Source: an uncultured archaeon
Lineage (GTDB): Archaea > Aenigmatarchaeota > Aenigmatarchaeia > JACPZZ01
Direction: 5' to 3'
Assembly: GCA_964476825.1 (NCBI GenBank)
Contig: CAYZCD010000002.1
Coordinates: 1 to 42,059, forward strand
DNA: 42,059 nucleotides
The notes under the pieces were generated by a model. It made no database searches and was not told where the DNA came from. It was given only the letters and a program-made list of their open reading frames with translations. The translations under genes and the position numbers were made by a program. Positions 7,574 to 35,746 of the stretch are shown one piece after another. Each line of letters opens with the position of its first letter. The stretch's first letter is position 1.

Positions 7574-7714
7574 ATGGATTACCGCAAGATATTTTGTTTG
7601 GTGGGAGCCCATAAATGGGGAGTCAAAATCATACACCCAGCCATCGGTTCAAACGTGGCGGATTATTCTCAGGCGTGTAAAATGTGCGGAAAAACGAAAA
7701 GATGGGTTGAATGA
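7574..7714 (+). CDS. possible 46-aa zinc-ribbon-like peptide
   Basis: ATG at 7574 gives MDYRKIFCLVGAHKWG...CKMCGKTKRWVE, below the cutoff of the ORF track. Contains a Cys/His pair plus CxxC. Confidence 0.25.
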   Translation: MDYRKIFCLVGAHKWGVKIIHPAIGSNVADYSQACKMCGKTKRWVE

Positions 7715-7757
7715 GGGCCAAGACAAATTTATATTAGCCCAAACTGAATGTTATTAT

Positions 7758-8216
7758 ATGGTCTGGTTTGTAAGAAAGAAACTCGATGCGGCGCCAATTG
7801 AACCAAGCCTATCTATGGAAAGTGAACAGGTTTTGATGACGCCAGAACCGATGCCGAAGCCGGTGGTTGAAACGCCTGCGATGCGAGAAGCCCCACTGTT
7901 TATCAAAGTCGACCGTTACAAGGAAATGCTTTCTTATTTCGGAGCCTTGAAAAACGACATAGAGACGTTGCGGCAGTTAAGCTCGGTTTTAAACAGCACC
8001 CAGGAAATGTTCATGGAAACGAACAAAGCGATAAGTTCTACTCTGGAAAGAACGGATAAGATATTGGAATCGCTGGACTCGGAAATGGGGCGCCCGGCCG
8101 GTTTGAACATAAACATGGACGCAGAGGCCAAGCGGGCGGAAATGAAGGTTTCTTTAAACGAACTGAAAAACCAGCTCGAAAAGCTGAAAAGCGAAGTAAA
8201 GGCTATTTCTGCCTAA
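7758..8216 (+). CDS. coiled-coil protein, unknown function
   Basis: The track ORF starts at TTG 7707. The first ATG is at 7758, preceded by AAATTTATATTA 14-25 nt upstream. The C-terminal half has heptad-like repeats. Confidence 0.55.
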   Translation: MVWFVRKKLDAAPIEPSLSMESEQVLMTPEPMPKPVVETPAMREAPLFIKVDRYKEMLSYFGALKNDIETLRQLSSVLNSTQEMFMETNKAISSTLERTDKILESLDSEMGRPAGLNINMDAEAKRAEMKVSLNELKNQLEKLKSEVKAISA

Positions 8217-8256: not shown

Positions 8257-8288
8257 GAATCATACCGATACAAAATACGGTATGATTT
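8257..8288. repeat. tRNA-associated hairpin family, copy H2
   Basis: GAATCATACCG / CGGTATGATTT gives 10 bp plus one G.T pair. Loop is ATACAAAATA. 5' flank AACT, and the 3' flank TAGTT abuts tRNA-Leu directly. A collapsed CTGAAC..GATTCTAAGT relic lies at 8230-8251. Confidence 0.8.
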
Positions 8289-8324
8289 TAGTTGCGGGGG
8301 TAGCCAAGCCCGGTCAAGGAACCA

Positions 8325-8348
8325 GAAGCATATCTGCTGATATGCTTC
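8325..8348. repeat. hairpin family copy H3, inside the tRNA-Leu D-loop intron
   Basis: GAAGCATAT / ATATGCTTC is 9 bp perfect, with loop CTGCTG. Enclosed by AACC (8320-8323) and GGTT (8354-8357). Confidence 0.7.
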
Positions 8349-8400
8349 AGTCGGTTCGACTTGAGTGATGAGGTTAAGCAAACTGGCGCAACAACAAACT

Positions 8401-8421
8401 GACACATACATGGTATGTGTC
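8401..8421. repeat. hairpin family copy H4, inside the tRNA-Leu D-loop intron
   Basis: CT-GACACATAC / GTATGTGTC-TGGTT is 9 bp with loop ATG. The flanks mirror the family CTGA...T(A/G)GTT pattern. Confidence 0.6.
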
Positions 8422-8638
8422 TGGTTGCAATGCGTCTGTCTGAACAACCAATGACTAGAGGCGTCAGACTCAAGTAAGCTTTCCCAGAAAGAAAGCCTAA
8501 GCAAAGAAGGGAAATCTGATCTCCTAGCGAGTTCGTCGGTTCAAATCCGGCCCCCCGCACTTTCTTTTCACTAAAAAAGCCATATTTAAACCTTGCAGAA
8601 ACTCATTATTCATACAAACTTTTTGAAAACGTGGTTTC

Positions 8639-9724
8639 ATGAAAGCGTACTTAGGTTATTCGGTTGTCGGCGTGTTCGCGTTTGACCCAGCCGGGACGCT
8701 ATTGGACAAGGAGTTTTTCAAGAAAGACGCGAAGCAGATTTCCATCAGATTAAACAAGGCCAAAAGCGAATTCCTGGACGAAGAGCTTGCATTGCTTAGA
8801 AGGCTCACAAAAAAAGGCGCAAACGAATTTTTCGGGGCATACCCAAAATCCGGCGAGTTCCGGATCAACCGCGATTCCGGGTCACTGGGCGAAAACAATG
8901 CAAAAGGCGTTTTTCGTGAAATTGCGCTGAGGGACAAGTGGGTTGTTTCACAGGCTGAACTAAACAAAATACTATCTGGCGTCGGGGCTGAGAGTTCCAA
9001 AGAAGAACTGCGCAACGTCGACAAGGACAAAATAGGAATGCGGGTTGTAGGCATGATAGACGAATTGAACAGGAACATAAACACGCTTTCAGAACATTTA
9101 CGCGAATGGTACGGGCTGTACTTCCCTGAAATTAACGGGCTGCTGAGGGACAATGAAAAATTCTCGGTTTTTGTGGCGGATAAAACACTGCGCGGAAATT
9201 TTGAACGCGACGGGAGAAAATTGGATATAGAAACCGCGGGTATGGAATTCGATGAGAATGATCTGGAAAGCGTAAAACAGGCGGGCCTCACACTAAAGCA
9301 AATGTATTTTGAGCGCAAGAACCTGGAAAATTATCTTGAAATATTGGGCAAAAAAATAATGCCGAATACGTCCGCTGTTGCCGGTGCGCTTCTCGCTTTC
9401 CGCCTAGTGTCGCAGGCAGGCGGGCTGGATAAACTTGTAAAACTGCCGTCGTCCACAATACAATTACTGGGTGCCGAAAAAGCTTTATTCAGGTTCTTAA
9501 AAAAGCAGGGCAAAGCCCCCAAACACGGCATAATTTTCTACCATCCGGCTGTAATTTCAGCGCCGATACCAATACGCGGAAAAATAGCACGCATCGTTGC
9601 GGCTAAAATAACCATGGCCGCCAGGGTCGATTTCTATTCCGGCAACGACAAAAGCGCAGCTATGAAAGAAGAGCTGAACCGCGTGGTAAACAACGCGTTA
9701 ACTCATTTCAAGGAAAGCGGTTGA
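8639..9724 (+). CDS. nop5: Nop5 (Nop56/58) C/D box sRNP core protein
   Basis: NOP-domain signature GAEKALFRFLK...PKHGIIFYHP. Sits immediately upstream of fibrillarin, as in most archaea. Confidence 0.9.
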   Translation: MKAYLGYSVVGVFAFDPAGTLLDKEFFKKDAKQISIRLNKAKSEFLDEELALLRRLTKKGANEFFGAYPKSGEFRINRDSGSLGENNAKGVFREIALRDKWVVSQAELNKILSGVGAESSKEELRNVDKDKIGMRVVGMIDELNRNINTLSEHLREWYGLYFPEINGLLRDNEKFSVFVADKTLRGNFERDGRKLDIETAGMEFDENDLESVKQAGLTLKQMYFERKNLENYLEILGKKIMPNTSAVAGALLAFRLVSQAGGLDKLVKLPSSTIQLLGAEKALFRFLKKQGKAPKHGIIFYHPAVISAPIPIRGKIARIVAAKITMAARVDFYSGNDKSAAMKEELNRVVNNALTHFKESG

Positions 9725-9727
9725 TCC

Positions 9728-10384
9728 ATGAAGTTGAAGGAAATTTTTCCGGGAGTCTTCCGTATAGACGGCCAGCTGGCTACAAAAAACCTGGTTAGTG
9801 GAAGGTCGTATTCAGAAAAAATAATAAACGTCAACGGCGAAGAATACAGAACCTGGAACCCGGAAAAATCCAAGGCCGCGGCCGCGATTTCGAAGGGAAT
9901 AAAAAATTTTCCGATAAACAAAGGCTCAAAAATCCTATACCTCGGAATAGCGCAAGGACAGACAGCTTCGTATTTTTCCGACATAATAGGCAACGACGGA
10001 ATAATTTATGGAGTTGAATTTTCAGCGCGTGCTGTTAGCGATCTTGTAATCGCATGCGGAAAAAGGGAAAATATAGTCTCCATAAAAGCAGACGCGCGCA
10101 AGCCCGAGGATTATTCATGGGTCGAAAAAGTCGACGTAGTCTATGAAGACGTCGCGGATTCCGAGCAGGCGGCGATATTGCTAAGGAATGTTGACGCTTT
10201 CCTAAAGAAAAACGGATATGCGATGATTGCGATAAAAGCAAGAAGCATAGACGTCACAAAAAACCCGTCTAAAATTTTCCAGGAATCCCTGTCCATGATA
10301 AAGGAAAAAATGGAAATATTGGACTATGTGACGCTGGACCCGTTTGAAGTCGATCACGCATTTATAGTGTGCAGGCCAAGGTGA
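9728..10384 (+). CDS. flpA: fibrillarin-like rRNA/tRNA 2'-O-methyltransferase
   Basis: GSKILYLGIAQGQTASYFSDIIG is the SAM-binding motif. Length and gene order with nop5 fit. Confidence 0.9.
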   Translation: MKLKEIFPGVFRIDGQLATKNLVSGRSYSEKIINVNGEEYRTWNPEKSKAAAAISKGIKNFPINKGSKILYLGIAQGQTASYFSDIIGNDGIIYGVEFSARAVSDLVIACGKRENIVSIKADARKPEDYSWVEKVDVVYEDVADSEQAAILLRNVDAFLKKNGYAMIAIKARSIDVTKNPSKIFQESLSMIKEKMEILDYVTLDPFEVDHAFIVCRPR

Positions 10385-20583: not shown

Positions 20584-20696
20584 GGGTCCGTAGCTCAGCC
20601 TGGACAGAGCAGCAGCCTCCTATCCGTGAGAAAACCTATACGGTTGTATTGCGGCGAGATAGTTGAAGGTCGCGGGTTCAAATCCCGTCGGATCCG
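20584..20696 (+). tRNA. tRNA-Arg (anticodon CCT) with canonical 38-nt intron
   Basis: Acceptor GGGTCCG/CGGATCC, which includes a G3.T70 pair, and D stem GCTC/GAGC. BHB: GCAGC|CTCC|TAT|CCGT paired with GCGG|CGAG|ATA|GTTGA. Intron is 20623-20660. T arm GCGGG-TTCAAAT-CCCGT, discriminator G. Confidence 0.7.
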
Positions 20697-31178: not shown

Positions 31179-31278
31179 GCCGAGGTCGCATAATCTGGTG
31201 GTGCACTGGTCTCGAATTTAGATGGAACAGAAAACCAGCGGGCGCAAGCCTATAAGGGTTCAAATCCCTTCCTCGGCG
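31179..31278 (+). tRNA. tRNA-Ser (anticodon CGA) with 16-nt intron
   Basis: Acceptor GCCGAGG/CCTCGGC, anticodon stem CTGGT/ACCAG, loop CTCGAA|intron 31217-31232|A. Long variable arm CGGGCGCAAGCCTAT. T arm AAGGG-TTCAAAT-CCCTT, discriminator G. TATA-like ATTTAAATAAAA at -33 to -22. Confidence 0.75.
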
Positions 31279-34579: not shown

Positions 34580-34693
34580 GGGTCCATTGTCTAACGGTAG
34601 GACGCCACCCTCACATGACCTTTTAAAAAGAGTGCTCAGCCAAAGAACGGTTTGGGATCGGTGGAGACGAGAGTTCAATTCTCTCTGGACCCA
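34580..34693 (+). tRNA. tRNA-Val (anticodon CAC) with canonical 43-nt intron
   Basis: Acceptor GGGTCCA/TGGACCC. BHB: CCACC|CTCA|CAT|GACC paired with GGTT|TGGG|ATC|GGTGG. Intron is 34616-34658. T arm GAGAG-TTCAATT-CTCTC, discriminator A. Confidence 0.85.
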
Positions 34694-35622: not shown

Positions 35623-35746
35623 GGGCCGGTAGATCAACGGTAGATCGCCACATTGGCATAAGCTTTTCCAAAAAGCTTAACCAAAAGAGGATGGTAAAGA
35701 CTTACCAAATTTGTGGAGGCTTCGGGTTCGAATCCCGACCGGTCCA
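35623..35746 (+). tRNA. tRNA-Ala (anticodon GGC) with canonical 52-nt intron
   Basis: Acceptor GGGCCGG/CCGGTCC with G3.T70. Anticodon stem CCACA/TGTGG, loop TTGGCA|intron 35659-35710|T. Central helix TTGG/CCAA with 3' bulge ATT. T arm TCGGG-TTCGAAT-CCCGA, discriminator A. Confidence 0.85.

Follow-up and report, generated by a model that had tools for sequence, protein, structure and literature searches.

Why would a transfer RNA (tRNA) gene keep, inside an intron of its D loop, a short segment complementary to its own anticodon loop? The question is raised by a tRNA-Leu(CAA) gene at positions 8294-8559 of a 42,059-nt stretch of DNA, referred to here as the window, which is contig 2 (CAYZCD010000002.1) of the GenBank assembly GCA_964476825.1 from an uncultured archaeon of the Aenigmatarchaeota (DPANN). 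This assembly, labelled G000, spans 0.8 Mb with 45% G+C and is 82% complete. The initial annotation of the window had proposed a 266-nt gene interrupted by a D-loop intron of about 141 nt and by a canonical intron of 39 nt, and had recorded the complementarity without assigning a function to it. Taken together with a kink-turn that lies next to it, this complementarity is the main point of the locus. The explanation that we consider best, and which we regard as probable, is that of a functional tRNA-Leu(CAA) gene whose D-loop intron bears a guide, built on a single kink-turn, for the methylation of nucleotide C34 of the same tRNA. The comparison set consists of seven species of one genus, namely G000 and six congeners represented by groundwater metagenome-assembled genomes (MAGs) of Candidatus Aenigmatarchaeota. 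Features given between 8294 and 10384 of the window lie on the plus strand.

Organisation of the tRNA-Leu(CAA) gene

The predicted mature tRNA-Leu(CAA) is composed of three exons that sum to 86 nt once both introns are removed. Exon 1 (8294-8317) contains the 5' strands of the acceptor stem and of the D stem, followed by the D loop as far as GGUCAA. Exon 2 (8459-8474) contains A21, the 3' strand of the D stem (GGC), G26, the 5' strand of the anticodon stem and the loop from C32 to G37, with the anticodon CAA at 8471-8473 and the predicted methylation target C34 at 8471. Exon 3 (8514-8559) extends from A38 through the 3' strand of the anticodon stem, the variable arm, the T arm and the 3' strand of the acceptor stem to the discriminator A at 8559, the CCA end not being encoded. 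The proposed 266-nt gene holds by hand reading and by ARAGORN, which calls a class II tRNA-Leu(CAA) on the sequence from which about 8318-8458 and 8475-8513 have been removed; the two proposed introns stand likewise, the boundaries of the first being refined to 8318-8458 (141 nt, at approximately position 20b/21, of bulge-helix-loop type). The second, canonical intron at position 37/38 (8475-8513, 39 nt) has a relaxed bulge-helix-bulge with a 3-bp CUC/GGG helix, carries no guide module and is present in five of the seven species, being missing in G001 and G004. In its unspliced form, 8294-8559 is not called as a tRNA by ARAGORN, by Rfam at the gathering score or by Rfam at E up to 10, and a snoRNA-like Rfam match over the locus at permissive E was dismissed as weak (15 bits, E = 3.6).

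Orthologues of tRNA-Leu(CAA), flanked by the same neighbours, are found in all six congeners. Across the seven species the introns diverge but the exons hardly vary, and substitutions in the variable arm are compensatory (CUC/GAG versus CCC/GGG). UUG is the commonest leucine codon of the genome (28.7%). The initial annotation had pointed to another intact tRNA-Leu(CAA), combined with silence of this locus, as a possible objection, and no second copy was found in the 82%-complete assembly; the gene on contig 10 that ARAGORN labels 'Leu(caa)' resembles Pro(CGG) and contains a run of Ns. The ARAGORN call, the conservation of the exons, the compensation in the variable arm, the use of UUG and the absence of a second copy thus argue for a real tRNA gene, and we think it probable, jointly with the guide proposed below, that 8294-8559 is a functional tRNA-Leu(CAA) gene with two protein-spliced introns.

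The D-loop intron occupies the identical site in all seven species, with lengths of 141 nt in G000 and of 100, 101, 69, 39, 39 and 37 nt in the congeners. The exon strand of its 4-bp splice helix, GGUC (8312-8315), has GACU (8453-8456) as its partner; across the seven species 27 of the 28 cells of this core pair, with changes that are wobble-compatible, and the helix GGUC/GAYN together with a 3-nt bulge at the 3' site is kept in every one. According to the bulge-helix-bulge rule, archaeal EndA cleaves each strand at a distance of two nucleotides, in the 3' direction, from the 4-bp helix. On account of this rule and of the D loop of intronless tRNA-Leu(CAG), we predict that cleavage follows A8317 and G8458. 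This would give a mature D loop, GGUCAAAGGCG, identical to that of the intronless tRNA-Leu(CAG) of congener G003, and the same loop occurs in intronless tRNA-Leu genes of other genomes of the class. A splice helix of 5 bp displaced by one position (GUCA/UGAC) was rejected, as it would give D loops that differ between species and from that of intronless tRNA-Leu(CAG).

The 3' site lies in a proper 3-nt bulge, AGA (8457-8459, cut as AG/A), adjoining the D stem. The 5' site is found within a loop or beside a local hairpin, the inner helix h' is not present, and the strict hBHBh' motif is not formed. The D-loop junction therefore appears, from its sequence, to fit the relaxed bulge-helix-loop class and not the strict motif, the bulge-helix-loop being named as a relaxed motif type in PMC5829648. 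Of the initial description of this junction as GGUCA (8312-8316) paired with UGACU (8452-8456) between 3-nt unpaired stretches, the pairing and the relaxed character stand, but the 3-nt bulge exists at the 3' site alone, the 5' site being in a loop. The same site and geometry are found in tRNA-Leu(CAA) and tRNA-Leu(UAA), and also in tRNA-Leu(CAG), of other families and of congeners, with introns down to 14-17 nt; this recurrence in the tRNA-Leu genes of other families indicates that the D-loop intron site predates the genus.

A candidate guide module in the D-loop intron

Within this intron, an antisense element, ACUUGAGU (8359-8366), can pair with A31-G37 and with the first base of the 37/38 intron (8468-8475), an arrangement in which G8363 faces C34. 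It is followed by a D'-like box, AUGA (8368-8371), which would form the non-bulged strand of a kink-turn and whose GA is invariant among the seven species while its first two bases vary (AU, CA or AG). The canonical stem of the kink-turn (8372-8449) pairs GGUU 8372-8375 with AACC 8446-8449 and closes a 70-nt expansion that includes a hairpin at 8401-8421. The other strand is given by a C'-like box, AAUGACU (8450-8456), composed of the bulge AAU, the GA of the sheared pairs (8453-8454) and a final CU; at 8453-8456 it overlaps the intron strand of the splice helix. A single template, GGUY-AAN-(insert)-CUUGAG-UG-NNGA-stem...stem-NNU-GA-NN-NNA-GGC, describes the intron of all seven species, with an insert of 0-1 nt that is 41 nt in G000.

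The pattern of conservation has the signature of a kink-turn. Compensatory double changes have occurred at three positions of the stem (G-C/U-A, U-A/C-G and U-A/G-C), whose interior measures 4 nt in the three short orthologues. The NNU-GA of the C'-like box is invariant, and in all seven species GA and NNU-GA flank the compensated stem, with boxes that are off consensus (AUGA/CAGA/AGGA on one side, AAUGACU/AAUGAUC on the other). Positions 2-8 of the guide, counted upstream of the box, pair with the target in all seven species, in which the CUUGAG core and its distance to the GA box are also invariant. C34 (8471) pairs with G8363, the fifth nucleotide upstream of AUGA (8368-8371), and the box C/D rule makes the base opposite this fifth position the target (PMC7994747). 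The complementarity pointed out in the initial annotation, ACUUGAG (8359-8365) with CUCAAGU (8469-8475), is thus confirmed. A 7-mer match within 266 nt is not rare when taken alone; the constancy of its core in the genus is accompanied by the same arrangement in 4 of the 18 intron-bearing tRNAs of the genome. Of five pre-tRNAs that were folded, three (G000, G004 and G003) include the guide-target helix in their minimum-free-energy structure. Where a guide of the pre-tRNA-Trp type sits in the 37/38 intron, this one sits in the D-loop intron. We consider that the core of the intron is probably, jointly with the reading of the gene as functional, a single-kink-turn guide of box C/D type, with the D-type strand at the 5' side and the C-type strand at the 3' side, i.e. 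in C'/D' order.

Two other arrangements of boxes were considered for the same intron and rejected. A two-box C/D small RNA (sRNA), with GUGAUGA (8365-8371) as box C, CUGA (8440-8443) as box D and an inner CUGA (8399-8402), would have no terminal stem and no C' box; the CUGA motifs of the expansion have no partner boxes, and the short orthologues do not contain them. The 12-mers that precede these motifs match no rRNA target, and their sole exact complement is antisense within a protein gene. A kink-turn of the opposite sense, formed through the first GA of UGAUGA, was set aside because congener G003 has GC there.

Recurrence of the module in other tRNAs and lineages

The same module, in the same register, is found in the 37/38 introns of three further tRNAs of this genome, namely tRNA-Met(CAU) (contig 17:14995-15107), tRNA-Lys(UUU) (contig 19:3368-3528, minus strand) and tRNA-Trp(CCA) (contig 29:9071-9236, minus strand), each with a single kink-turn and with nucleotide 34 at the fifth position upstream of AUGA or CUGA. 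When the module is defined as antisense, 2-nt spacer, NUGA, stem and NAUGA, the four cases that include tRNA-Leu(CAA) all have the 2-nt spacer, and none of the 18 intron-bearing tRNAs matches at any other spacer from 0 to 8. In shuffled sequences the mean number of matches was 0.089, and the maximum in 5000 shuffles was 2, against the 4 observed. The stem is followed by (A/U/G)AUGA in the tRNA-Met, tRNA-Lys, tRNA-Trp and tRNA-Leu(UAA) modules alike, and the boxes of some related modules, in other tRNAs and families, match the consensus CUGA and AUGAUG. Four other intron-bearing tRNAs of the window, Arg(CCU) (20584-20696), Ser(CGA) (31179-31278), Val(CAC) (34580-34693) and Ala(GGC) (35623-35746), carry no guide module in the position-34 register.

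Beyond the tRNA-Leu(CAA) of the genus, the module changes intron. The tRNA-Leu(UAA) of the same genus has it in the 37/38 intron with a perfect CUGA, and in other Aenigmatarchaeota families tRNA-Leu(CAA) and tRNA-Leu(UAA) have it in the 37/38 intron or in an intron on the 5' side of the anticodon loop; tRNA-Leu(UAG), tRNA-Leu(GAG) and tRNA-Leu(CAG) have no module. In six tRNA-Leu(CAA) loci from several of these families (L011, L020, L320, L321, L322 and L323) the guide lies in an intron at about 30/31 to 32/33, so that it precedes its target, and a short, guideless D-loop intron is present as well in some of the genes. A survey of 371 genomes of the class gave 51 matches to the pattern, compared with about 8 for a reversed control; a guide placed directly after GGUYAA was found in the six congeners only, which confines the D-loop placement to this genus. 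Apparent D-loop guides outside the genus, in G297 and G280, are chance matches inside protein genes. A first pattern scan of public genome contigs matched the six congeners only; a second, the matches of which are mostly bacterial palindromes, brought up one tRNA-Leu(CAA) of the Undinarchaeota with the module in its 37/38 intron. A pattern scan of public metagenomes gave no tRNA-Leu locus among the matches listed, and a genome-wide scan with a loose motif gave 304 matches that are mostly due to chance and uninformative.

Proposed mechanism and alternative explanations

The most likely role of this mini-guide, judging by sequence comparison, is to direct the 2'-O-methylation of C34 of its own tRNA. 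We hypothesise that, if the gene is transcribed as a single precursor, L7Ae may bind the kink-turn either in the pre-tRNA, in a fold where the guide is paired, or in the excised intron, which would then act in trans. Nop5 and fibrillarin would assemble on this single kink-turn, the antisense element would pair with A31-G37 of the anticodon loop, and fibrillarin would 2'-O-methylate C34, the nucleotide opposite the fifth position upstream of the box. Since the GA of the kink-turn (8453-8454) is also part of the splice helix GGUC/GACU, the RNA would have to refold before splicing: G8453-U8456 would leave the kink-turn and pair with G8312-C8315, giving the bulge-helix-loop. In the order of events proposed here, a single-unit EndA with a loop of Nanoarchaeum/ARMAN type could then cut after A8317, after G8458 and at the 37/38 intron, and RtcB would join the exons into the 86-nt tRNA. 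We also lean, somewhat more towards than away from it, to the view that a guide need not adjoin its target: the C34 guide is lodged in the D-loop intron, and the anticodon-loop intron, lost in two species, appears to be dispensable.

Several observations weigh against a methylation guide. The boxes are degenerate in the genus, with AUGA, CAGA or AGGA in place of CUGA and AAUGACU in place of RUGAUGA. There is one kink-turn only, with a single conserved box pair, and the two pairs of a C/D plus C'/D' arrangement are not present. Archaeal box C/D RNAs normally have both C/D and C'/D' motifs, and efficient methylation in vitro is reported to require both. In the guide-paired fold, neither the anticodon stem nor the D stem can form normally. 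The guide-target duplex measures just 7-8 bp, while the usual box C/D guides have 10-12 nt (PMC7994747). The 5' splice site lies in a loop, so that the cut sites are deduced and no strict motif dictates them. The register test was framed after the pattern had been seen, the fifth-nucleotide rule itself being prior knowledge. Finally, all seven D-loop examples come from one genus and from common descent and are not independent; the independent evidence is that of the covariation in the stem and of the parallels in other tRNAs and families.

The alternative that survives best, although we hold it to be unlikely, is that the kink-turn and the antisense element are purely structural, aiding the folding of the pre-tRNA or presenting the D-loop site to EndA, without recruitment of fibrillarin and with C34 unmethylated. 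The overlap between the GA of the kink-turn and the splice helix, which makes these elements physically coupled, speaks for such a role, as do the single kink-turn, the degenerate boxes and the short duplex of 7-8 bp. However, the 2-nt spacer and the fifth-position register are invariant over four tRNA species and many families, in D-loop, 30/31 and 37/38 introns alike, and this argues against a purely structural role because structure alone would not need such a register. In addition, the tRNAs concerned are those in which position 34 is a box C/D target in Pyrococcus (PMC7994747), and the introns that tRNA-Leu(CAG) and other families have at the same D-loop site carry no module of this kind and would be spliced without one.

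It is still less probable, and in our opinion improbable, that the module is an inert relic, i.e. that a guide-bearing anticodon-loop intron, or a copy of it, was transposed into an older D-loop intron and is now drifting without function. In favour of this reading, other families and the tRNA-Leu(UAA) of the same genus have the module in an anticodon-loop intron, the D-loop site is older than the genus and the D'-like box has drifted from CUGA. Drift would nevertheless hardly have left the antisense core, the spacer, both GAs and the bulged U invariant in seven species in which the intron interiors and the 37/38 introns have either diverged or disappeared; compensatory changes moreover uphold the stem, and these pre-tRNAs have no other guide for C34. 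That the locus is a pseudogene, an old tRNA-Leu broken by hairpin elements and giving no mature tRNA while UUG is read by tRNA-Leu(UAA), is very improbable: standard finders do miss the gene, mobile-looking hairpins do lie within it and an 82%-complete assembly could omit another copy, but exons and splice geometry are conserved in seven species with compensatory changes in the variable arm, the hairpin insert is wholly intronic, UUG is the commonest leucine codon and many other essential tRNAs of the genome are split in the same way.

Comparison with known systems

A guide for C34 in the D-loop intron, as we propose it, would represent a known device, the intron guide that targets its own tRNA, in a new layout, and there is good comparative evidence for it. 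The known archaeal cases are tRNA-Trp, described as 'a unique example' in a 2014 review (PMC4090602), and one tRNA-Met of Nanoarchaeum equitans, for which a guide has been suggested (PMC3491384). In euryarchaeal pre-tRNA-Trp (Haloferax volcanii; Pyrococcus sR50; PMC7994747, PMC4090602), the guide lies in the intron of its own tRNA, was shown in Haloferax extracts to guide Cm34 and Um39, and is reported to act in trans once the intron is excised (PMC7994747). The locus described here resembles it in having a putative intronic kink-turn of the L7Ae type together with an antisense to its own anticodon loop, in setting C34 opposite the fifth nucleotide upstream of a D-type box, and in allowing action in cis or, after excision, in trans. 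In the work on H. volcanii pre-tRNA-Trp, the guide-paired fold and the splicing fold are reportedly mutually exclusive. The differences concern position, since the pre-tRNA-Trp guide sits in the anticodon-loop intron whereas here the D-loop intron would place the guide about 45-110 nt upstream of its target, and composition, with one kink-turn, one guide (none for U39), degenerate boxes, tRNA-Leu(CAA) as the target and the order guide, D-type box, stem-loop, C-type box.

Closer in lineage is N. equitans, another DPANN archaeon, in which a stable C/D-like RNA was found in the 66-nt intron of elongator tRNA-Met (Randau 2012, PMC3491384). Both systems have a guide-like RNA inside a tRNA intron, and the tRNA-Met intron of G000 (contig 17) carries the same module as its tRNA-Leu(CAA); the intron of N. 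equitans is at the canonical position, and the paper contains no D-loop or tRNA-Leu case (PMC3491384). In Pyrococcus, box C/D sRNAs target position 34 of tRNA-Leu(CAA) and tRNA-Leu(UAA), as well as of tRNA-Met and tRNA-Trp (PMC7994747), so that the predicted target nucleotide, the tRNA species and the enzyme system are the same as here; those guides are free-standing sRNAs with two box pairs, while here the guide would lie within the precursor of its own target.

As to splicing, introns of the relaxed bulge-helix-bulge type (HBh', hBH and bulge-helix-loop or BHL; Thermoproteales, N. equitans and ARMAN-2; PMC5829648, PMC3239211, PMC3488258) share with this one a position away from the anticodon loop, a 4-bp helix accompanied by a single proper bulge and a single loop, and an EndA with a lysine-rich loop of the Nanoarchaeum/ARMAN kind. 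They differ in that the EndA here is apparently a single-unit, alpha4-like enzyme and that the intron, at 141 nt, exceeds the published range and holds a functional-looking module. The yeast Trm4 system concerns the same tRNA species and the same nucleotide and likewise requires an intron. The product of Trm4 is a base methylation. Trm4 modifies C34 of yeast pre-tRNA-Leu(CAA) in an intron-dependent manner (PMC4090602) by protein-only recognition of an anticodon-intron helix, with no kink-turn, guide ribonucleoprotein (RNP) or D-loop intron being involved.

What would be new is the placement in the D loop, the presence of the module in different introns according to lineage, and the fact that two species have lost the anticodon-loop intron. 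A literature search, itself incomplete, found no description of a guide in a D-loop intron or in any other tRNA intron outside the anticodon loop. The introns of archaeal tRNA genes are for the most part regarded as functionless or as a shield against integrating elements. Should our proposal be true, this would be the first case in which a tRNA intron located elsewhere than in the anticodon loop has its own function, guide modules could be said to move between introns, and there would be a selective reason for the retention of non-canonical introns in DPANN archaea, in this case a concrete one for an intron kept in every species of the genus. tRNA-Leu(CAA) would join the tRNAs with predicted intron guides. 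Placing the guide in a D-loop intron would separate guide function from the anticodon-loop position, and would imply either long-range action in cis on a largely unfolded precursor or action in trans. With 37-39 nt and one kink-turn, the short orthologues could also provide a natural minimal substrate with which to examine how small the set of components of a box C/D RNP can be. At the level of genome annotation, essential tRNA genes of these genomes escape standard tRNA finders, which inflates the apparent loss of tRNAs in DPANN.

Protein machinery and genomic neighbourhood

The proteins that the proposed mechanism would need are encoded in the genome. The nop5 gene (8639-9724), for a Nop5/56-type core protein of box C/D RNPs (Pfam Nop, E = 1.2e-49), starts 79 nt downstream of the tRNA and has an apparent TATA-like element of its own by direct reading of the sequence. 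It is followed by the gene for fibrillarin, the 2'-O-methyltransferase of box C/D RNPs (9728-10384; Pfam Fibrillarin, E = 1.4e-79). L7Ae is encoded on contig 37, and RtcB is encoded as two pieces at contig ends. The order of a coiled-coil open reading frame (ORF; 7707-8216), tRNA-Leu(CAA), nop5 and fibrillarin is kept in the six congeners, in G029 (family f2) and in G059 (family f15), while the order tRNA-nop5-fibrillarin is not kept in several other families. We record this adjacency as a curiosity and not as evidence; a bolder addition to the proposal would be that it may reflect a coupling of the guide-bearing tRNA with the RNP genes. The pair formed by the upstream ORF and the tRNA is kept by itself in several further families.

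The relaxed D-loop site calls for an endonuclease of broad specificity, as had been initially supposed, but the type of enzyme suggested at that stage, either that of Thermoproteales, (alpha-beta)2, or the epsilon2 of ARMAN, does not correspond to the sole EndA found. This EndA (locus L001, 1474-2133, on contig 32, minus strand) is a single unit of about 205 aa with the Pfam domain tRNA_int_endo (E = 6e-27) and an N-terminal domain. It aligns end to end with the homotetrameric enzyme of M. jannaschii except for a 6-residue lysine-rich insert in the interval between the catalytic Tyr and His, where it reads KIKRGPKEA. The insert aligns without gaps to the alpha subunit of N. equitans, and an insert of equal length occupies the corresponding place in ARMAN-2. 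The assembly, 82% complete, yielded no beta-type subunit. The EndA encoded here thus appears to be single-unit and alpha4-like, with an extra loop of DPANN type. From its position, we infer that the insert corresponds to the L3 loop, which PMC5829648 reports for alpha4-type EndAs from several DPANN lineages in which many tRNA genes are disrupted.

Intron length, hairpin insertions and other split tRNA genes

The length of the D-loop intron had been considered uncommon, and it lies above the range of 11-129 nt given for archaeal tRNA introns in the 2014 review (PMC4090602). This view does not hold for a genome with pre-tRNAs of 295, 238 and 173 nt, and the conserved core of the intron is only 37-39 nt. 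The length of 141 nt is secondary, since repeated hairpin elements have enlarged this core after the 5' splice site and inside the stem-loop of the kink-turn. The first of these elements (8318-8358, 41 nt; stems 8319-8323/8353-8357 and 8325-8334/8339-8348) is inserted immediately after the 5' splice site and is specific to G000, being missing from every other congener, including G005, which is 92% identical over the rest of the locus; it resembles a family of repeated hairpins found near other tRNA genes and in their introns. The enlargement of the stem-loop amounts to about 66 nt, is partly common to three congeners and contains the hairpin 8401-8421, copies of which are found elsewhere in the genome. 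A third hairpin of the repeated family, with an A/T-rich loop, lies just upstream of the tRNA (8258-8289).

ARAGORN finds just 28 tRNA genes in this genome, some of them mislabelled. Among the other split genes are a 295-nt class II tRNA with a Ser-type acceptor stem and several introns, the loop of which may be read as CUUAGAA (contig 18:9654-9948); a heavily split tRNA-Ser(GGA) of 238 nt (contig 27:10585-10822, minus strand); a tRNA-Asn(GUU) with a D-loop intron plus others (contig 42:2034-2206, minus strand); and a tRNA-Leu(CAG) with an intron in or beside the D arm, which ARAGORN labels as Val (contig 1:6080-6216). In congener G006, the tRNA-Leu(CAA) orthologue (L006; contig 7, minus strand) is a 224-nt gene with three introns, the third of which, in the T arm, holds a hairpin of the family, and related hairpins form most of the D-loop intron of its tRNA-Leu(CAG). 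Similar hairpins are also present in tRNA-Trp and tRNA-Ser introns of G000.

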